DNA of 11,958 bases, from NCBI GenBank assembly GCA_029259185.1, contig JAPDJF010000007.1, positions 1 through 11,958 of the forward strand, in the 5' to 3' direction. Each line of letters begins with the position of its first letter. Within the stretch, counting starts at the first letter, position 1. Shown piece by piece: positions 1-11,038 of this stretch. The translations under genes and the position numbers were made by a program. A model generated the notes under the pieces. The model saw only the letters and a program-made list of their open reading frames with translations. It searched no databases and had not been told where the DNA came from. This DNA comes from Hadesarchaea archaeon (GTDB taxonomy: Archaea; Hadarchaeota; Hadarchaeia; Hadarchaeales; WYZ-LMO6).

Positions 1-556
1 TAGTTACACCAAGTCTGAGAGCGATCTTCCTTAACAGTCTGAGGGTCTCAACAAACGATTTCTTTACGGCTTCCTTCTTGGAGGTCCTCACATCGGGAGG
101 GGAAAAGCCCTCCTGAGGTCTCGTCCCCTCGTTGACCAGCCTGCCGTAGAGGAACCCGATTCCTATCGACAGCATGCTCCCCACGAAGGAAAATGCCACG
201 TATTCAATCGCGAGAGAGAAACCCAGAGCGGGTACGGCCACCGGCAGGTAATACCGGAGGAGGGTTCCTATCCTCCTCGACGCTGAGGATATGAGTACGG
301 TGGTGATGGCTTCTGACTCACTAACACACCCTTTGTCTATCAAGGAAGCGAGTGTTGAGTGTGCGGCCGTTCCATCAAGCATAAATACAGCCGGAACCAC
401 GGTGGCCTCGTTCGGAATCTTGGCGACCTTCGCCAGTGGTATCAGAGGTCTGGTGAGGTGTTTTATCAGTCCCAACTCCATTACGACATTTGCGAGAAAA
501 ATACCGATAAATATGAAAACGATGAGCCTGAGATAAAGTACCGCGAAATAGATCAT
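1..556 (-). CDS. Gate/nucleoside-recognition-domain-type polytopic membrane protein, 3' end off the left edge; paralog of 9411..10337
   Basis: Absent from the ORF track because no stop falls in the window. Manual translation from ATG 556 is open to base 1: MIYFAVLYLRLIVFIFIGIFLANVVMELGLIKHLTRPLIPLAKVAKIPNEATVVPAVFMLDGTAAHSTLASLIDKG...RYYLPVAVPALG...IGFLYGR. It aligns by eye with 9411..10337 (GVLLANFIIEVGL, MDGRAGHSIVSSL, KFYMPVVLAALG, IGILYGR). It starts 17 nt after the ATPase stop, and an in-frame TGA at 571-569 bounds the start. The family label is from recall, not a search. Confidence 0.8.
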   Translation of the reverse strand, partial: MIYFAVLYLRLIVFIFIGIFLANVVMELGLIKHLTRPLIPLAKVAKIPNEATVVPAVFMLDGTAAHSTLASLIDKGCVSESEAITTVLISSASRRIGTLLRYYLPVAVPALGFSLAIEYVAFSFVGSMLSIGIGFLYGRLVNEGTRPQEGFSPPDVRTSKKEAVKKSFVETLRLLRKIALRLGVT

Positions 557-2452: not shown

Positions 2453-3538
2453 TCAATCCTTCCAAGGTTGAGGTGTGGTCGGGTATACCCAACACCAGTT
2501 CTCAGAATATCTAACGTTCAGGAAGTTCTCGAAATAGCATCTCTGGACCTCCGTTGGATTCAAATTCTCGAAGAGTTCGGGATGGAAGAATTTGGCATAC
2601 CAGAGGGCACCTATTATCCCTTTAGGACCAGTCGCTATGTCAGGATCCACAGCATACACGGCACCGCTCTTCACGGCTTTTACGGTTTGCAGTTCATCCC
2701 GAGCTAATATCCGCTCTCGAGTCTCCCGTAAACAAAACTCGTTGTCCTTGCTCCTTGAATAGGAAGCTACTTTAACGATCACATCCGGGTTCTTCTCCAC
2801 TACCCATTCAGGGTCAACGGTGACATACGCACTAGAACTCAAAAGGGCCGCGATATTGTTTCCCCCACCTATCTCGATTCCCCTGTTCCACCATCCTTGG
2901 TTTGCCGCCGTGGTGGTTTTCCAAGTTGTCCAACTCTCGAAATAGACATCCGGTATCTCCTCAGGGCCCAGTTTCCCCACCCGGTTCTCAAGCATGTTTA
3001 GATATCCCTCCCAGAATTCCCAGAGTTTTCTCGCTTCCTCCTCCCTCCCGTAGATCCTTCCCAACACCATTATCTCGCTCCTGAATTTGTCCGGTTTGTA
3101 GCCATCGATGATAACGGGCTCTATCCCGGCGGGTTTAAGGTGTTGTTCAAGCTCTTCCACCCCTGGCCATCGCTGGTAGGCTATAACGATATCGGGTTGG
3201 AGTTCGATGATTTTTTCATAGTTGGGCGAGAAACAGCTTCCCACCACTTCTTTCTTGCTCAGCACGGGAAAGAGCCACGTATCTTGTGCCATGTATTTGC
3301 TCACACCCACGATCAGGTTCAGGTCTACCCCTATTGCCTTCATAAGTTCTGCGGCATCACCGTGGAGAACCACGGTTTTTGGTTGGTAGGGGATCTCTAT
3401 GAGTCTCCCGGCGGAATCCACAATCTCCACAGTTTCTTTGACTCCCGGTCGCGTGACGGTTGTGGTGAGAAAGGTGGCCAATCCTCCCGCGACGAGAGCT
3501 GTTAGGACTATCGCAACCACTAGCTTTCCCAGCGCCAT
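2453..3538 (-). CDS. ABC transporter substrate-binding protein, BtuF/FecB/HmuT-like (helical-backbone) family, membrane-anchored
   Basis: From ATG 3538: hydrophobic N-terminal anchor MALGKLVVAIVLTALVAGGLATF, then VDSAGRLIEIP, PNYEKIIELQPDIVI, VDPEWVVEKNPDVIV, VKAVKSGAVY and AKFFHPELF. 361 aa. The track's extension to 3727 overlaps the divergent gene and is rejected. Confidence 0.92.
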   Translation of the reverse strand: MALGKLVVAIVLTALVAGGLATFLTTTVTRPGVKETVEIVDSAGRLIEIPYQPKTVVLHGDAAELMKAIGVDLNLIVGVSKYMAQDTWLFPVLSKKEVVGSCFSPNYEKIIELQPDIVIAYQRWPGVEELEQHLKPAGIEPVIIDGYKPDKFRSEIMVLGRIYGREEEARKLWEFWEGYLNMLENRVGKLGPEEIPDVYFESWTTWKTTTAANQGWWNRGIEIGGGNNIAALLSSSAYVTVDPEWVVEKNPDVIVKVASYSRSKDNEFCLRETRERILARDELQTVKAVKSGAVYAVDPDIATGPKGIIGALWYAKFFHPELFENLNPTEVQRCYFENFLNVRYSENWCWVYPTTPQPWKD

Positions 3539-3546
3539 CTCAGAAC

Positions 3547-3563
3547 CGGAAGTATTATTAAAA
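3547..3563 (+). promoter_or_regulatory. Candidate archaeal BRE + TATA box for the chelatase operon (probably leaderless)
   Basis: CGGAAGTATTATTAAAA. The TTATTAAA element at 3555-3562 ends about 22 nt before ATG 3585, which has no SD. Confidence 0.5.
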
Positions 3564-3581
3564 CAGAAGTATTTAATACTT
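3550..3581. promoter_or_regulatory. Inverted-repeat operator AAGTATTA-N16-TAATACTT, NikR-like
   Basis: Perfect 8-bp arms at 3550-3557 and 3574-3581 with a 16-nt AT-rich spacer. The core GTATTA-N16-TAATAC differs by one base per half-site from the E. coli NikR operator GTATGA-N16-TCATAC. It lies in the only divergent spacer of the window. Confidence 0.72.
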
Positions 3582-3584
3582 TCG
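3570..3584 (-). promoter_or_regulatory. Candidate archaeal BRE + TATA box for the ABC operon
   Basis: The minus strand reads CGAAAG-TATTAAATA, ending about 31 nt before ATG 3538. This fits a purine-rich BRE plus TATA and a very short leader. Confidence 0.6.
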
Positions 3585-6020
3585 ATGAATATTTCAAACA
3601 AAAGTAATACTGCTCTTAGGCTCTCCTTCATAATAGGGTATGGTGCCTCGGCTCTCCCAAAGCTTGCGAAGGTGGTGGAAGAAGAGACGGTGGAACATGG
3701 CTTTGAGGGTCTGGTCATAAGCGACACGACATACGAACATCATAGGAACTTCGTAGCCTCTAGTGGGGGAGTGTTTATCTATTCTCACGCTCTTCCCATC
3801 GGAATCGAGGAGGATCTACGGAACTCGAGGATAGTAGTCTCGGTCAGTCGTCTCCATGCGCATCTCTCCAAAGGGCCGAAGGAGGTGCTCAGGAAGGCGG
3901 CGGTTTTGTTCGCTGTTGGAGGGGATAAAAATTTCAGAGAACTCATTCATCTCATGCTTCGAAGCCTTGGTCGTGACGTGGAGGTCGGTGAGGTGGAAGA
4001 AATTCCTTGGGATGGAATATACCACCCGAGGATGGGGATGTTCAAGACAGTTGAGGAGTATCTTGAGAAATATCCCCATAAGAATAAACCCTTGGTGGGC
4101 CTCATCTTCCACCGAACTTACATGCTGTATGGGAACATGGCCCATGTGGAATCTGTAATCGAAAAACTTGAGGAAAAGGGTCTGGGGGTCTTGCCCGTGT
4201 TTACCTACGGACACACGGATCCGATTCTGGGCACACCATCGAAAGAGGACTCGATCGAGAAATTCTTCTTCTCGAGCAAGAAGCCCTTAGTGGAGGCTGT
4301 GGTGAACCTGACGATGTTCTTCCTTTTAGATCATGGAAATTGGGTTGCAGACAGTTCGGTGGGATTCAGGGAAGTTCTGGGGGTGGAGAAGCTCAAAAAG
4401 CTCAATGTGCCGATACTTCAGCCCACATTCTCTTTTTATGAGAGAGTAGATGAATGGATCGAGGACCCGCGAGGGGTTGATTATCTCAGCCAAGTGTACA
4501 CCGTTATCATGCCAGAGGTAGATGGTTTGATAGAACCCATTTACCTAGCGGGTTCGAAAATGGATTCCCAAGGGGTTAGTCTTTACGAGAGCTATCCTCC
4601 ACACGCGGAGTATGTGGCAGGGAGGGTTAAGAAATGGATTGAACTGAGGAGGAAGCCCCCCTCGGAGCGGAAGGTAGCGATAGTCCTCATCAATCCTCCC
4701 TGTAAGGGTCTTGAGGCTAGTGTGGGTGTGGGACTCGGTTTGGATGTTCCGGAGAGTGTTACCCGGTTACTATCTAAATTACGCGAGTTCGGTTATACGG
4801 TGGGGCAAGATTTGCCGCGGAGCGGGAAAGAACTGGTCGAGCTAATCTTGAACAGAAAGGCCATAAGTGAGTTCAGGTGGACGTCGGTAGAGGAAATAGT
4901 GGGAAAGGGTGGGGCGGCAGCTTTCGTTGATCGTGATACTTACTTGAAGTGGTTTGAGGAGCTCCCGAGTGGGGTACAGAAGAAAATGATTGAGGATTGG
5001 GGACATCCGGTGGATGTCTTGTCCGGAAGAGTTAGGAGGGAGCTAGTTGGAATGGTGTACGAGGGAAAATTCGTGATCCCTGGTCTGGTTTTTGGAAACG
5101 TGTTCTTAACCCCTCAGCCTAAGTTCGGGTGCGCTGGGTCCCGGTGCGATGGAGAGGTGTGCAGGATACTCCATGACCCCACCGTGACCCCTCCCCACCA
5201 ATGGCTCGCGGTTTATCGCTGGATCACTAGGGTGTTCGGAGCGGATGTGATCATCCACTTCGGGACTCACGGGTACTTGGAGTTCAGACCGGGTAAGGGA
5301 GTGGGACTCTCTCCCTCCTGCTGGCCCGAGATAACGCTGGATGATGTGCCCCACCTCTACGTCTACGTTGTTTCCAACCCGATGGAAGGGGTCATAGCGA
5401 AAAGGAGGGGATATGCAACGTTGGTCGATCACATGTATCCCCCGATGGCCATGGCTGAGGTGCTTGAGGAGGTGGAGGACCTCTTGGCCCAGTACTCTAA
5501 GGCCAAGCAGCTCGGAGAATTCGAACGAGCCCACGTGATCTACGAAAAACTGCTGGAGAAAGCGAAGGAAAATAACATTCCAATCGGACAGGGGGATCCG
5601 AGTGAAGTGGTGGAGGGGATACACAGGTACATGGAAGGTGTGAGAAATACTCAGATAGATATGGGATTACACGTCTTTGGGTATCCTCCAACCGATGATG
5701 GAAAACTCGCCGAGTACGCCGCCACCGCTATGGCGTTCGACTCACCCACGGGTCCCTCGATCAGGAGGGTCTTGGCCGAACGCCTAGGGTTGGATTATGA
5801 TGAGTTGAGATCGAAGCCGAGCGAAGTGAGCGCGTTCGGATTGACGAATTCGGAGCTGATTCAAACCCTCCACCGAATCGCTGTGAGTGTGCTCAAACGA
5901 TCTCTAAGGTCCGGACTCACGAGTTCCGAACTTCATGAACGCACGCTAGTGGATTACATCGACGAGGAACTGAAAAGAGCGTTTGGAGTGGGTTCGAATG
6001 CTGGAGCTGGAGAAGGTTGA
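3585..6020 (+). CDS. cobN: CobN/ChlH-family chelatase large subunit, N-terminal part (811 aa)
   Basis: Family motifs VIMPEVDGLIEP, WIELRRKPPSERKVAIVL, GLDVPESV, GLVFGNVFLTPQP, HDPTVTPPHQW, IHFGTHGYLEFRPGK, NPMEGVIAKRRG and GLHVFG. Start placed at ATG 3585 rather than 3399. The symbol marks the family only; metal specificity is not established. Confidence 0.92.
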   Translation: MNISNKSNTALRLSFIIGYGASALPKLAKVVEEETVEHGFEGLVISDTTYEHHRNFVASSGGVFIYSHALPIGIEEDLRNSRIVVSVSRLHAHLSKGPKEVLRKAAVLFAVGGDKNFRELIHLMLRSLGRDVEVGEVEEIPWDGIYHPRMGMFKTVEEYLEKYPHKNKPLVGLIFHRTYMLYGNMAHVESVIEKLEEKGLGVLPVFTYGHTDPILGTPSKEDSIEKFFFSSKKPLVEAVVNLTMFFLLDHGNWVADSSVGFREVLGVEKLKKLNVPILQPTFSFYERVDEWIEDPRGVDYLSQVYTVIMPEVDGLIEPIYLAGSKMDSQGVSLYESYPPHAEYVAGRVKKWIELRRKPPSERKVAIVLINPPCKGLEASVGVGLGLDVPESVTRLLSKLREFGYTVGQDLPRSGKELVELILNRKAISEFRWTSVEEIVGKGGAAAFVDRDTYLKWFEELPSGVQKKMIEDWGHPVDVLSGRVRRELVGMVYEGKFVIPGLVFGNVFLTPQPKFGCAGSRCDGEVCRILHDPTVTPPHQWLAVYRWITRVFGADVIIHFGTHGYLEFRPGKGVGLSPSCWPEITLDDVPHLYVYVVSNPMEGVIAKRRGYATLVDHMYPPMAMAEVLEEVEDLLAQYSKAKQLGEFERAHVIYEKLLEKAKENNIPIGQGDPSEVVEGIHRYMEGVRNTQIDMGLHVFGYPPTDDGKLAEYAATAMAFDSPTGPSIRRVLAERLGLDYDELRSKPSEVSAFGLTNSELIQTLHRIAVSVLKRSLRSGLTSSELHERTLVDYIDEELKRAFGVGSNAGAGEG
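5985..5992 (+). promoter_or_regulatory. Shine-Dalgarno-like site for the second cobN-like gene
   Basis: GGAGTGGG, with GGAGTG ending 7 nt before ATG 5998. Confidence 0.55.
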
Positions 6021-7503
6021 ACGTGAGAGACTCCTGAATCCGTTCAGGAGGGCATTGAACATGATTAAAAGGATAAAGAAGTGCGAGAAGGAAGTGGGGA
6101 ATTTCCTCGTTGGGTTGGGGGGAGGATTCATAGAACCCGGGGCATCGGGATCCGTGACTAGGGGAAAGATCGAGGTCTTGCCTACCGGTCGGAACTTCTA
6201 TGCGATAGATCCCACGACGATACCGACCCCATCGGCGTGGAAGATCGGAGCCGAGACGGCCGACAAACTCGTCAAGTATTACCTCGAGAAGCATGGTAGA
6301 TATCCGGAAAGTGTGGGGCAAGTGCTCTGGAGCATAGATGGCTACAAAGCGGACGGTGAACAGCTCGCTCAGATACTCTGGTTGTTCGGGACAAGGCCAA
6401 TTTGGGATCCAACGGGGTTCGTGAGGGGGATAGAGGTTATATCGTTGGAGGAGCTCGGAAGACCCAGGATAGATAGTGTGGTCAGGATGAGCGGAATAAT
6501 GAGAGATACACTGCCGAATTATATCTATCTGATAGATGAGGCCGTGTCCAAAGTCGTGGTCCTAGATGAACCACTCGATAGGAACTACGTGCGAAAGCAC
6601 TACATGGAGCACTTGGCGAAGCTCGTCGAACTGGGGAAAAAAGCGGGAGAGGCCGAGAGGTCTGCGAGGTGCAGGGTGTATTGTAGCCCTCCGGGAACCT
6701 ATGGAACAGGCGTGAACTTAGCCGTTGAGGCATCGGCTTGGAGAAGTGATGAAGATCTGGCGAAGACTTGGATCCAGTGGGGGGGATATGCGTACACCAA
6801 GGACGTGTTTGGGAAACAGGATCTGGAGGGTTTCGCCTTGAACGTCAAGCGTGTCGATGTGGTTACGCGACAGCACGTAAGCGACGAGCACGACATCTTC
6901 AACTGCTGCTGTTATTACGGGTACCACGGAGGATTCTACAACACGGTCAAAAAACTGAGCGGGAGGAAAGACATCGAGGTAGTGGTGGTGGACACGAAAG
7001 ACGTTTCCTTCACGCACGTGAGGGAGATGAAGGAGGAGATAGAGAGGGTCGCGAGGGTGAAGCTCCTGAATCCGGTGTGGATATCGGAGATGAAGAAGCA
7101 CGGGTATAGGGGAGCCAACGAATTCTCAAAGAAGATACTCCATCTCTACGGCTGGTCCTCCACCACGAGGCTCGTGGAGAAGTGGATCTTCGACTCGGTA
7201 GCTGAGACGTATGTGCTGGACGAGGAGATGAGGCGGTGGTTGGAGGAGAACAACGTGTGGGCACTTGAGGAAATAGCTAGGAGACTCATCGAGGCTGCGG
7301 AGAGGGGATTGTGGAAACCCTCGGAGGAGGTCTTGGAAAGGCTTAAGGGCATCTACGGCGAGGTGGAGGGACTACTTGAAGAATCGGTTACTGGGGAGAT
7401 CCAAGGTGGCACGATAAATGTTTACACAGCAGAGGAGGTGGATAACTGGCAGATAAAAGCATCAGAGGTGAGGAGGATATGGGAGGAGCTGAGAGAAAGA
7501 TAA
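5998..7503 (+). CDS. cobN: CobN/ChlH-family chelatase large subunit, C-terminal part (501 aa)
   Basis: Motifs [78 protein letters not shown] and [11 protein letters not shown]. These continue the CobN sequence from where 3585..6020 ends. ATG 5998 is preferred over TTG 5983 because of the SD. Confidence 0.92.
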
Positions 7504-9392
7504 TCTTTCCATTCACAGCGATTGTGGGTCAAGAAAGGGCGAAGCTTGCTCTTCTTTGCTCGGCGGTAAATCCGTCGATAGGAGGGGTTCTCCTGAGCGG
7601 GGACAAGGGAACGGGAAAATCGACGCTCGTAAGGGCGCTAGCGGACCTGTTGCCCGAGATCGAGGTCGTTGCTGATTGTCCGTTCAGTTGTGGTCCCAGT
7701 CCGCTCGAGATGTGTGACTCCTGCTATATGAGGTTTCGGAGTGGAGAAGGGATGAACTTGGTCAAGAGAAAGATGAGGGTGGTTGATTTGCCTCTGAGCA
7801 TAACCGTCGATAGGCTTGTGGGAACCTTAGACATCAAGAGGGCGATGAAAGAGGGTGTGAGGGCCCTACACCCTGGATTGCTTGCTGAGGCCAACAGGAA
7901 CATTCTCTACATAGATGAGGTCAACTTGTTGGAAGACTACGTTGCGGATGTGTTACTGGATTCGGCGGCTATGGGATGGAACATCGTGGAGAGGGAAGGA
8001 ATCTCCGTCAGACATCCAGCTAGGTTCATCTTAGTTGGGAGCATGAATCCAGAAGAAGGGGAACTCAGACCACAGATCCTGGATAGGTTCGGTCTTTATG
8101 TGAGAATAGAGGCACCGGATGAGGTTGATCAGAGAATCGAGGTTGTGAGGAGGGTCGAGGAGTTTCAAGCGGATCCCATCTCTTTCCACGAGAGATATGG
8201 TGGGGAGCAAGAGAAGCTGAGGGAGAGGATAATCAGAGCCCGGAGCATCCTCCCCGGGGTGGAAATTGGAGCCGATTTACTGAAGTTGCTGGCCGAAACG
8301 GTTGCGGGAATGGGAATTAAGACCCACCGGGCCGAGATAATGACGGTTCGGGCTGCTAAGGCCATAGCTGCGCTGGAAGGGAGGAGGAAGGTAAACTTGG
8401 AGGATATGAAGAAAGCTATGGAGTTGGCTCTTCCCCACCGAGTGAAAGAAAAGCCGTTTGAGCAACCTCCTCCTCAGCCACTTTCGATTCCACCCAAAGC
8501 TGGAGGTGGGGGAGGAGATCATGGGAAGAAAAACGAGGGCAACGAGGGAGAGAACAAAAGAGGAGAAACATCGTCGTTAACGGGTAATGCTGAACGAACC
8601 TATGAGCCAAGTCATGCCGATCTCTTCCCTCTACCCAAGCGGAGGAATCCAGAGGCGGTCGAAAGGAGGAGTCAGGGGAGGGTTTCCAAGGAGGAGAAGA
8701 GAACGATGGTGGGGTTCCCCCAAGGGGTACCTATCTCATACCTTCCGCTACAAGAAAGCGAGCAATTCCGTGATGTGGATCTCACCGCAACCATCGTGGC
8801 AGCTGTTTCAAGACCCCGAGACAGGTTCGGGGTGGAGGAGGATGATGTAAGGGTGAGGATCAGGAAAACGAGGGCTCCTAAGTTAACAGTTTTGCTTTTG
8901 GATTCGAGCGGGAGTATGAGTATAATGAAGCGGATAAGCATAGCTAAAGGTATTGCGCTCAAGCAGATTGAAAATTCTTATGTCGGGAGAAACTACATGG
9001 CCTTGATAGCCTTCAGGGGGCGAGAGGCTCAAGTACTCGTCCCTCCCACCCGGAGGTATGAGGAGGTGCTGCGGAAGCTGAGAGAACTCCCAACTGGGGG
9101 AAAAACCCCTCTCTCGTCCGCTCTCCAAGAGTTATTATTTTTGTCCAAGAACTTCAGGAGGAAGAACAAGGGGTCTGTGGTTGAGGGAATACTCATAACG
9201 GATGGAAAAGCCAACGTTCCCCTGCGAGGACCCTCCGTGAGAGGGGAAGTCTTGGCCCTCGCTAGGAGTACCAAGAAATCCGGTATAAGGATGGAAATTT
9301 ACGACACGAGACCTCATGCGCACATAGATCCCGCACCCTCTCTCATAGAACCGTTGCAAAGCGTTTTGGGTGCACCCGTGCATGTGTACTGA
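7479..9392 (+). CDS. chlD: Chelatase AAA+ subunit, ChlI-like ATPase domain + linker + vWA domain (ChlD/BchD architecture)
   Basis: FPFTAIVGQ, Walker [26 protein letters not shown], Walker [26 protein letters not shown], a Pro/Gly/charged linker, then MIDAS DSSGSM, TGGKTPL and ITDGKAN. SD GAGGTGA at 7465-7471. Overlaps the upstream gene by 25 nt. Confidence 0.92.
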
Positions 9393-9410: not shown

Positions 9411-10337
9411 GTGGCTCACTACCTCCGCTCTACTTTGCTTGTCGTTGTTTCGACGTTTTTCGGGGTTCTTCTCGCAAACTTCATCATAGAGGTCGGACTC
9501 GCGGGCAGGGTTGGTGCCCCCTTAAACCCCTTGATGGGTGTGGCTGGGCTCCCGAGAGAACTTTCGATCGCAGCCCTTATAGGCACCATGGATGGAAGGG
9601 CGGGTCACTCGATCGTTTCCTCTTTACGGAGGAAGAACGAGATAGGTGATGAGGCGGTCATAGCGTATAACCTCACCACGATGCCGCTCGCGTTTATCTC
9701 CATACTGCTCAAATTTTACATGCCAGTTGTGCTAGCGGCATTAGGGTTGGTGGCCGGCGGTGCATTCCTCATTCTGACTTTCATCTCAAGTTTGATCGGG
9801 ATGTTCATAGGCATCCTCTATGGAAGACGGAAACTCAGCGATGGAAAACGGCTACGGTTGAAGCAGAGGACTGGGAAGAAATCTAGGGGGGAGGCTTTCA
9901 GAAGTTCTTTTTCAAGAGCGGTTGGGATGACGAAATACGTGTTCAAACGTTACATCGTAGTCATCCTTTTGCTTTTGGTTCTCACCCGCACCGGCTTCTT
10001 CGATTGGATAGCCAAAGCGATCCAGGGGCTAACCGTGACGGGGTTGTCTCCCCACTCATTGGTGGCGCTCTCAACTTGTGCTGTGAGCCCTATCGCTGGC
10101 ATATTCATGGTCGGGGACATGCTGAGAGGTGGACTGGTGGGGATACGGGAGACCCTTCTGGTTCTCATCATCGGCAGGTTGCTTTTCACACTAGCGTTCG
10201 AGTATCCACGTCATTCATTCCCGTTCTACGTTTCCATGTATCCGGCCAAACTCGCAGCGAAACTGACGTTGACACTCATGCTCACAACGGTGCTGAGTAC
10301 TCCAGTCTTGATATTCATAACGTTAGCTGCATTCTGA
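9411..10337 (+). CDS. Gate/nucleoside-recognition-domain-type polytopic membrane protein
   Basis: 308 aa with two hydrophobic halves separated by a basic loop (RRKLSDGKRLRLKQRTGKKSR). GTG start 18 nt after the chlD stop. Paralog of <1..556. The family label is from recall. Confidence 0.8.
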   Translation: MAHYLRSTLLVVVSTFFGVLLANFIIEVGLAGRVGAPLNPLMGVAGLPRELSIAALIGTMDGRAGHSIVSSLRRKNEIGDEAVIAYNLTTMPLAFISILLKFYMPVVLAALGLVAGGAFLILTFISSLIGMFIGILYGRRKLSDGKRLRLKQRTGKKSRGEAFRSSFSRAVGMTKYVFKRYIVVILLLLVLTRTGFFDWIAKAIQGLTVTGLSPHSLVALSTCAVSPIAGIFMVGDMLRGGLVGIRETLLVLIIGRLLFTLAFEYPRHSFPFYVSMYPAKLAAKLTLTLMLTTVLSTPVLIFITLAAF

Positions 10338-10378: not shown

Positions 10379-11038
10379 ATGAGAATCTCAGACGATTGGA
10401 TGGACAGAAAAAGAAAGGATGTTTATGCGATATCAATGAAGTTAGAGTCGGAAGCGAGAGGACTTGAGGCAGAGGGGAATGTGGGCAAGGCTTTGAGGAT
10501 GTGGAGGGATTACACGAAACTCAAACTGGAGAAGGGAAGCTACTTCCTCGCCTCTTACGGTCGGTATGCAGAGGGAAGGGTGCTAGAGAGGATGGGCAAA
10601 CAATCAAAGGCCGCGAGGAAATACGCCGCTGCGGCCGACCTTGCGGAGTCTAAGTGCCAAAACCTTGATCTTGCAGCGTTCTTTCTCCTCGAGTCAGCGC
10701 GATGTTTGGAGAGTGTTTCCAGACTGAGCGACGCCCGTCGGGTCTACGAACGCATGGCTCGAATGTGGATGGAGGTGGGAAATCATTTCAGGGCCGCCGA
10801 TGCATACGAGCGTGCTGTCAGAGTTATCGAGCGGAGCGGTGGGTCTCTAAAAGGATATCATAGGGGTGGGGAGGAGTGGATGAAGTGCTATGAAAAGCAC
10901 TTAGAAAAGGGGGGCATCGAAGACGCGCTCTGGAGCTTGAGAAGGGCTTGGCTCTACTTCGAGCGGGTCGGGGCAAAAGGGCTCGTGAGGAAGGTTAAAA
11001 CCATCCTAGAGCGATCTAATCGGAGTGTTAAGTCATGA
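10379..11038 (+). CDS. Hypothetical alpha-helical repeat protein (TPR/SNAP-like)
   Basis: 219 aa, rich in Ala/Arg/Glu/Tyr, with repeated helix-pair patterns (GKQSKAARKYAAAA, RLSDARRVYERMA, GNHFRAADAYERA, GIEDALWSLRRA). The start may instead be ATG 10400. Confidence 0.7.
   Translation: MRISDDWMDRKRKDVYAISMKLESEARGLEAEGNVGKALRMWRDYTKLKLEKGSYFLASYGRYAEGRVLERMGKQSKAARKYAAAADLAESKCQNLDLAAFFLLESARCLESVSRLSDARRVYERMARMWMEVGNHFRAADAYERAVRVIERSGGSLKGYHRGGEEWMKCYEKHLEKGGIEDALWSLRRAWLYFERVGAKGLVRKVKTILERSNRSVKS

Follow-up and report, generated by a model that had tools for sequence, protein, structure and literature searches.

The window analyzed here, 11,958 nucleotides of Hadesarchaea archaeon DNA (positions 1 to 11,958 of contig JAPDJF010000007.1), carries the operon of a class-III ABC importer and the operon of a split CobN/ChlID chelatase in divergent orientation, and the short spacer between them raises the question of whether both operons are controlled from a single site, and by which regulator. 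The sequence-only reading of this DNA had described a perfect dyad with 8-nt arms and 16-nt spacing in this region, which was confirmed letter for letter: positions 3550-3581 read AAGTATTATTAAAACAGAAGTATTTAATACTT and are composed of the left arm AAGTATTA (3550-3557), 16 intervening nucleotides and the perfectly complementary right arm TAATACTT (3574-3581). The dyad fills most of the 46-bp spacer between the ATG codons of the gene encoding the substrate-binding protein (PBP) of the importer (3538-3536, minus strand) and of cobN (3585, plus strand). The data presented below suggest, with a probability of about 0.7, that the dyad represents an operator of the nickel-responsive regulator NikR overlapping both core promoters, and the more general assignment as a real operator of some metal-responsive repressor appears highly probable from the sequence comparisons.

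The half-sites of the dyad are heptamers, of which the left one reads GTATTAT (3552-3558, plus strand; hexamer GTATTA at 3552-3557) and the right one TTAATAC (3573-3579), corresponding to GTATTAA on the minus strand. Positions 3558 to 3573 form the 16-nt spacer that separates the hexamers, and the centres of the heptamers are located 21 bp apart, at a distance of about two helical turns. The symmetry can be widened to 11-nt arms with one mismatch, CGGAAGTATTA at 3547-3557 and TAATACTTTCG at 3574-3584. Additionally, a 15-bp palindrome, AAGTATTtAATACTT at 3567-3581, overlaps the right side of the dyad, and a direct repeat, AACCGGAAGTATT / AAACAGAAGTATT, is present at 3544-3556 and 3561-3573. The exact 32-nt pattern was recovered from none of 200 shuffles of the window. 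Dinucleotide shuffling of the 46-nt spacer gave perfect inverted repeats with arms of at least 8 nt and a gap of 3-30 nt in 94 of 5000 cases (1.9%), and perfect inverted repeats of at least 8 nt with a gap of 10-22 nt are found in 47 of the 1776 AT-rich islands (2.6%) of the own genome, G000, which has a size of 1.27 Mb, a GC content of 52% and a completeness of 95% and comprises the window as contig C30. Accordingly, the dyad is real, yet only moderately unusual as such, and what counts is its sequence and its conservation rather than the bare symmetry; a dyad of NikR-type hexamers arose in a single one of the 5000 spacer shuffles.

The gene cluster was detected in only one of the 60 relatives compared, G005 (locus L011), in which the PBP and cobN genes show the same divergent arrangement and the CobN proteins are 50-60% identical to those of the window in two comparisons. 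The G005 spacer contains the motif GGTATTA-N16-TAATACC, in which the hexamers, the 16-nt spacing and the right heptamer TTAATAC are identical to those of the window, whereas 9 of the 16 spacer letters, as counted from the alignment, and also the flanks differ. A strain variant (L042, 98% identical) has kept both arms, with one substitution in the 16-nt spacer. The conservation of half-sites and spacing in orthologous spacers, on which the sequence-only reading had made its proposal depend, was thus found to be exact in G005, and the arms were retained in the variant. In the five family relatives, comprising about 6 Mb, the hexamer dyad occurred once, at the G005 spacer, compared with no occurrence in the control. 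A third heptamer, GTAATAC, which matches the consensus perfectly, is located within codons 7-9 of cobN (3604-3610, plus strand), 24 nt from the right half-site and hence out of the 21-bp register; G005 has a comparable AAAGTAATA upstream of its cobN ATG.

Genome and metagenome collections yielded 38 related loci from records labelled as Korarchaeota, Bathyarchaeia, Methanomethylicota, Thermoproteota, Archaeoglobi and Baldrarchaeum, and cobN mostly occupies the fourth place in an operon with the order PBP-permease-ATPase-cobN. Eight of nine distinct promoters of this operon type contain two GTRTTAC heptamers upstream of the PBP gene and the ninth (L010) contains a degenerate pair, with the Korarchaeota-type promoters L026-L028, L031 and L034 and the promoters of other architectures (L012, L013/L038 and L019) standing outside this count. 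The spacing of the heptamers is 14 nt, rarely 13 or 15 nt, and their orientation is direct or inverted: the PBP gene is preceded by GTGTTAC-N14-GTGTTAC in L005, L008, L018, L022 and L025, by GTATTAC-N14-GTATTAC in L017, by GTATTAC-N14-GTAACAC in L035 and by GTATCAC-N15-GTAATAC in L021. A scan of the 38 loci (293,538 nt) for pairs of GTRTTAC heptamers in either orientation, separated by 13-15 nt and with at most one mismatch, resulted in 14 matches representing 10 distinct sites, compared with one site in the backwards control. Nine of these 10 sites are located at the PBP start of a cobN cluster and the tenth 34 nt before another open reading frame (ORF), 3.6 kb upstream of cobN. Six promoters possess a separate canonical TATA box (TTTAAATA, CTTAAATA, TTTATAAG or CTTATAAG) 9-24 nt upstream of the first heptamer; therefore, the TATA function in these promoters does not reside in the heptamers, which cover the position where transcription is expected to start. 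The conserved spacing that had been demanded of relatives thus recurs in other phyla, where the orthologous operon has a related pair of heptamers in front of it, again in the 21-bp register. The consensus GTRWYAC is nearly palindromic, a property that would fit a two-fold symmetric ribbon-helix-helix (RHH) dimer and the interchangeability of direct and inverted pairs. In the loci L014, L015, L016, L039 and L040, labelled as Thermoprotei, a metallo-beta-lactamase-like gene precedes cobN; the cobN ATG has a perfect GTATTAC 13 nt in front of it, a weaker partner in everted orientation, TAAATAC, is found 15 nt further upstream, and the palindrome TACTGT-N9-ACAGTA is present as well.

The orientation of the heptamers also bears on the view that the dyad is not a protein-binding site at all but an RNA hairpin or a cruciform, in the manner of a stem-loop or terminator-like structure. 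The RNA of positions 3544-3587 can form a stem of 11 bp and a loop of 16 nt at -10.7 kcal/mol (z = -4.07), a value reached by none of 200 shuffles. However, the heptamers of most other phyla are direct repeats that are unable to pair, the relatives reveal no compensatory changes but simply identical arms, and the site lies between divergent start codons, with neither of the inferred transcripts spanning both arms. The A/U-rich stem would moreover be expected to be unstable in the hydrothermal vent habitat, and a structural role of this kind is considered very improbable. A search of sequencing runs recovered the window DNA from 7 DNA runs, labelled as hydrothermal vent metagenome, and from no RNA run.

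The nikR gene that the proposal had called for was found in intact form in genome G000, as a single copy on contig C2. The respective ORF of 136 aa comprises an RHH and a NikR_C domain (NikR_C at C2:63123-63347; PF08753 at 104 bits) and exceeds the NikR cut-offs of NCBIfam (NF002169, 164 versus a cut-off of 111; NF003381, 132 versus 105). Its RHH strand reads RISITL, and the nickel site HMH-x5-C (HxH-x5-C) is present and can be aligned with the region of the nickel site in solved NikR structures (2bj1, E value 1.7e-28; 2ca9; 1q5v). NikR is encoded in all 11 genomes checked, which are carriers of the motif or family relatives. A comparison of the NikR beta-strand residues with the half-site variants revealed no clear covariation (R-I-S-I-T in the family, R-x-G/C-x-S/T in other phyla). 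Regarding nickel enzymes, genome G000 encodes two [NiFe]-hydrogenase large subunits and a protein of the carbon monoxide dehydrogenase (CODH) type (CODH/prismane). The 95%-complete genome yielded neither the nickel transporters CbiM/NikM and NiCoT nor the tetrapyrrole proteins ALAD (HemB, PF00490) and CbiX (PF01903); it accordingly combines a nickel demand with the lack of a recognised nickel transporter and of tetrapyrrole synthesis. Since ALAD and CbiX are missing, the 'cobaltochelatase' cannot serve B12 or de novo synthesis, and with CbiM/NikM and NiCoT missing too, the divergent importer is a candidate nickel route as judged from gene content. The cluster is linked to an importer and not, as would be expected for a biosynthetic cobaltochelatase, to a tetrapyrrole or corrin pathway, and no CobN equivalog cut-off of NCBIfam was reached by the CobN proteins of the window.

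Further carriers of the motif define a candidate regulon. In five other genomes carrying the operon, the exact direct pair gave five matches compared with none in the control, and four of them are promoters of cobN operons. The fifth match (L052) is located 38 nt upstream of a CbiM/NikM gene that is followed by a gene for a PDGLE-domain protein. An inverted pair (L055) was detected with a TTTATAAG box on one side and, on the other, a ZnuA-like gene that has an FmdE gene behind it, and two further inverted-pair matches in other genomes fall into coding DNA and were discarded. The order-wide scans of 61 genomes yielded four direct pairs, compared with one in the control. The first (L082) precedes an FmdE-zinc-finger gene by 9 nt, with a nikR gene in divergent orientation at a distance of 121 nt; the others are one of the form GTATTAC-N14-GTATTAC 23 nt before a HemN-like radical-SAM gene (L081), one between ZIP and ZnuA genes and one near a small ORF rich in His. 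The suggested tie of the cluster to nickel gains support from the same motif before nikM/cbiM and beside nikR in other genomes, and is weakened in that neither arrangement exists in G000. This small ORF, with the His-rich stretch HDRHDHHGHRGAH, lies in a family relative devoid of the cobN cluster, about 135 nt behind a perfect GTATTAC-N14-GTATTAC (L084, G003:C11:39048-39075), and might encode a microprotein that binds nickel and is controlled in the same way.

Within G000, the pattern GTRTTA-N15-17-TAAYAC occurs twice, at the window site and on contig C8. The C8 site (L078, G000:C8:18449-18476) is a perfect GTGTTAC-N14-GTAACAC abutting a TTATAAAT box; it is located 37 nt before the gene of a secreted FmdE-domain protein of 451 aa and just after a gene combining FmdE with a DksA/TraR zinc finger. 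Genes for FmdE-domain proteins are the most frequent neighbours of the motif, the other genomes (L055 and L082) included. On contig C26 (G000:C26:3318-3344, L085), a TTTATAG element is enclosed by the pair GTAATAT-N13-ATAATAC, which is located 9 nt before a HemN/HemW/ChuW-like radical-SAM gene, the product of which remains under all NCBIfam cut-offs. An orthologue of this gene in G036 (L088) is preceded by GTAATAT-N14-GTAATAT, and the heptamer pairs of L081 and L088 are cleaner than that of C26. These upstream variants in three genera indicate that the factor tolerates the variation of the outer letters seen in the GTATTAT and TTAATAC half-sites of the window, and the comparison suggests the C26 HemN-like gene as a third regulon member with a tetrapyrrole flavour. 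Genome G000 thus seems to have three sites, located in the window spacer, at the C8 FmdE gene and at the C26 HemN-like gene. The near-matches at C12:6075, C47:2515, C7:13320 and C2:65045 of G000 lie in coding DNA or at its end and were judged to be due to chance, as were the matches L053, L054, L070-L073, L077 and L079 inside ORFs. The spacer that separates an HTH-regulator gene from a radical-SAM activase-like gene (G000:C10:38840-38970) contains several GTTAC/GTAAC repeats (GTGTTAC..CGTAAC..GTGTTACGCGTTAC..GATAAC) and looks like a separate operator system.

In the proposed mechanism, for which we infer from the DNA sequence NikR as the binder, nickel as the signal, the positions of the TATA boxes and transcription starts, and repression upon binding, the two RHH dimers of a NikR tetramer would occupy GTATTAT and TTAATAC, and the distance of 21 bp between the half-site centres would place them on one face of the helix. 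The positions of the core promoter elements were predicted from the sequence and from the style of the elements upstream of the own tRNA genes. For the cobN operon, the putative TFB recognition element (BRE) and TATA box are located at 3547-3560 on the plus strand (CGGAAG and TATTATTA, the latter at 3553-3560), about 25 nt upstream of the ATG at 3585, which implies that the cobN mRNA may be leaderless or nearly so. For the importer operon, the corresponding predicted elements are located at 3570-3584 on the minus strand (CGAAAG and TATTAAATA, the latter at 3578-3570), about 31 nt upstream of the ATG at 3538. Each of the two back-to-back promoters would thus have its TATA box overlapped by one half-site, and nickel-loaded NikR would block the access of the TATA-binding protein (TBP) and transcription factor B (TFB) at both. 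The leftward importer operon and the rightward split-CobN/ChlID operon would be shut off together, and both would be expressed when nickel is scarce. With regard to placement, the sites of other phyla are found just downstream of the TATA box, the C8 site just upstream of it and the window site over the predicted ones, and all three arrangements are compatible with repression by occlusion. Archaeal repressors that occlude the core promoter include MDR1, LrpA, Phr and similar proteins, which belong to different protein families and recognize different motifs; the mechanism proposed here would be the same, namely steric exclusion of TBP/TFB or of RNA polymerase at or downstream of the TATA box.

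Several findings weigh against the assignment of the dyad to NikR. Its arms read GRAAG followed by TATTA and thereby resemble the BRE/TATA elements upstream of the own tRNA genes, such as GAAAGTAATTC, ATATTAAAC and ACGTATTTATT, and they occupy the positions expected for the TATA boxes of two leaderless or nearly leaderless genes. The earlier caveat that two back-to-back BRE/TATA elements would create some dyad symmetry by themselves therefore stands, and the symmetry may be a by-product of two similar elements (GRAAG-TATTA) in a spacer of 46 bp, with no dedicated repressor involved. Perfect dyads of at least 8 nt in 47 of 1776 AT-rich islands are in line with such an origin, and so is the conservation of the left arm with G005, which runs on into TAAAA as a TATA box would. 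Moreover, a perfect 9-nt dyad, CTAGTATTT-N15-AAATACTAG, with AGTATTT elements is present in a 37-bp spacer at G000:C9:4672-4704. This spacer separates a PP-loop ATPase-like gene from a divergent gene for a small membrane protein, and its dyad may represent either a further operator or a symmetric pair of TATA boxes. In opposition to a by-product, the hexamer GTATTA is under-represented in the genome (149 occurrences versus about 500 expected from base composition), and AAGTATTA is found mostly in coding DNA and not in promoters. All four arms in two diverged spacers are exactly GTATTA at 16 nt, although the BRE is not kept in G005, and the heptamers of other phyla lie downstream of separate canonical TATA boxes. 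Taken together, a mere by-product of promoter elements is regarded as improbable, and since the arms do resemble BRE/TATA elements, operator and TATA boxes are considered to overlap and not to be alternatives.

The distribution of the motif weighs against NikR as well. In the order-wide scans, the hexamer dyad was detected at 14 sites compared with 28 in the backwards control (summed rows), so that one occurrence alone carries no significance. Four family relatives carry nikR but neither the cluster nor the exact hexamer dyad, so that the presence of nikR is not discriminating, and a heptamer pair with at most two mismatches was found within 1.5 kb on either side of only 2 of 12 nikR loci and not at the nikR gene of G000. 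The expected site before hydrogenase and CODH genes failed to appear: in G000, neither the two [NiFe]-hydrogenase clusters nor the CODH gene are preceded by a pair above 11 bits, and nikM/cbiM, also named as a target, does not occur there. A position weight matrix of the 7-mer, built from 10 non-Hadarchaeal sites of the same comparison from which the archaeal GTRTTAC consensus was derived, ranked the window site 23rd in its own genome, with 14.08 bits compared with 24.04 bits for the C8 FmdE site, because both heptamers deviate at position 7, the inner end. Finally, the ZnuA and ZIP targets could point to zinc or another metal.

The dyad might hence be the operator of another metal-responsive regulator that reads GTRWYAC pairs, for instance a sensor of zinc or cobalt or an FmdE-zinc-finger protein, with the presence of NikR being coincidental. 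The motif before ZnuA-like and ZIP genes would be explained in this way, and FmdE-domain genes, some of them with a DksA/TraR zinc finger, are its most frequent neighbours; the relatives with nikR but without the exact site and the 10 of 12 nikR loci without a nearby pair likewise agree with such a factor, and a passage of PMC3087415 raises zinc sensing for one NikR homologue of a methanogen. On the other hand, half-site and spacing match the NikR signals given in excerpts of PMC545781, and a passage of PMC12350162 describes a CobN1 that responds to nickel limitation in a methanogen. The motif is located before nikM/cbiM and beside nikR in one genome each, and among the loci that include upstream DNA, no other regulator gene is conserved beside the cobN operons. 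A regulator different from NikR thus appears unlikely, and NikR is retained as the preferred candidate.

Archaeal NikR regulons have been predicted before, and an earlier listing of this operon is possible; Rodionov et al. are said to have reported in 2006 that NikR signals diverge among bacteria and archaea. A full-text literature search, which did not extend to the 2006 regulon prediction, revealed no description of NikR sites before archaeal cobN operons. Although NikR boxes are a known kind of element, the searched literature contains neither a NikR-type site linked to an archaeal PBP-FecCD-ATPase / split-CobN-ChlID cluster nor the free orientation of the heptamers or the bidirectional placement over two TATA boxes. 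As far as excerpts of PMC545781 go, the enterobacterial NikR signal is GTATGAT-N13/14-ATCATAC, the predicted delta-proteobacterial one is GTGTTAC-N13/14-GTAACAC, and pairs of half-sites are only inverted or everted. By comparison with these partial data, the window site likewise consists of two half-sites within a unit of 27-28 bp (3552-3579, 28 bp), and its GTATTA shares five of six letters with both the enterobacterial GTATGA and the delta-proteobacterial GTGTTA, whereas the C8 site of G000 equals the predicted delta-proteobacterial consensus letter for letter. As with the bacterial operators, for example that of nikABCDE in E. coli, the site is located in the promoter of an uptake system and the cognate NikR is encoded in the genome. 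It differs from them in belonging to an archaeal promoter, with half-sites over predicted TATA/BRE elements rather than -35/-10 regions and a single site for two divergent operons. Moreover, control would be exerted on a class-III (FecBCD-like) importer and on a CobN/ChlID chelatase instead of NikABCDE or NikMNQO, and direct heptamer pairs are as frequent as inverted ones in related archaea.

Two further systems resemble parts of the locus. According to a passage of PMC5140060, an ABC system of the FecDE/CeuE type imports nickel in H. pylori and ceuE is regulated by NikR. The leftward operon of the window is of the same three-component type as this Helicobacter system (CeuE/FecDE, NiuBDE), as far as described there, with a siderophore/B12-type binding protein, a FecD permease and an ATPase; NiuBDE differs in having no chelatase partner and in the consensus and the pleiotropic regulon of H. 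pylori NikR. The second system is the Bacteroidota Hmu/BtuS type, in which HmuS is a CobN-like de-chelatase that takes iron from imported heme (PMC12583661 and PMC6460266, in part). The excerpts have in common with the window a CobN-family protein that is encoded together with metal-tetrapyrrole uptake and not with biosynthesis. In the window, however, CobN is split in two, the ChlI/ChlD AAA+ motor is kept, an outer-membrane receptor is lacking and control would apparently be exerted by a nickel sensor and not by iron or heme. The role of archaeal CobN/ChlH/HmuS homologues is called unclear in a passage of PMC12583661.

The leftward operon starts with the PBP gene (2453-3538, minus strand), the product of which belongs to the Peripla_BP_2 proteins of the heme/siderophore/B12 type (PF01497, E value 3.4e-26) and has its best NCBIfam matches all under their cut-offs. 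It is followed on the same strand by the genes for a FecCD-family permease (1341-2495; PF01032, E value 4.2e-87) and an ABC ATPase (574-1347; PF00005, E value 1.5e-30). On the plus strand, the first gene of the rightward operon encodes the N-terminal part of the CobN-like chelatase (3585-6020, 811 aa; positions 5-665 of the 1090 positions of PF02514) and the second its C-terminal part (5983-7503, 506 aa; positions 676-1089). The two ORFs overlap at 5983-6020, and PF02514 is covered end to end by both together. A frameshift error was rejected as the cause of the split, since the same division into about 800 and 515 aa is present in every related locus that extends far enough; judging from this comparison, the split CobN is a natural two-gene form in several archaeal phyla. 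The subsequent ORF (7479-9392, plus strand) specifies a fused ChlI/ChlD-like AAA+/VWA motor subunit with matches to AAA_lid_2, Mg_chelatase and VWA_2, and reaches 646 bits with TIGR02442 ('putative cobaltochelatase'), under the cut-off of 779. The make-up of a class I chelatase (CobN/ChlH/HmuS plus AAA+) was accordingly found, with the large CobN-Mg_chel subunit and the ChlI/ChlD-type AAA+/VWA subunits both present. A Gate-domain membrane protein (9411-10337) and a TPR protein (10379-11038), both encoded on the plus strand and with weak Pfam matches only, probably belong to the rightward operon as suggested by gene spacing. Membrane proteins with weak Gate (nucleoside-recognition / FeoB-like) matches end both operons (2-556, minus strand, and 9411-10337) and are possibly an extra transport component of the system.

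With respect to physiology, a speculative and rather doubtful proposal, modelled on HmuS and heme iron, is that Hadarchaeota and other anaerobic archaea possess a nickel-salvage regulon of importer, split CobN/ChlID, HemN/ChuW-like and FmdE proteins, in which a nickel chelate would be imported and its nickel removed by an ATP-driven 'reverse chelatase'. The imported chelate would possibly be a nickel tetrapyrrole, one candidate being coenzyme F430, or products of its breakdown, released by methanogens and methane oxidisers living nearby. The finding provides a concrete lead for the widespread combination of split CobN and importer that points towards nickel acquisition and not B12 synthesis, and it would give the archaea an example of one operator that covers two TATA boxes placed back to back. 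Moreover, it suggests that archaeal NikR reads pseudo-palindromic GTRWYAC heptamers with free orientation, to which the tools for regulon prediction would need to be adapted.

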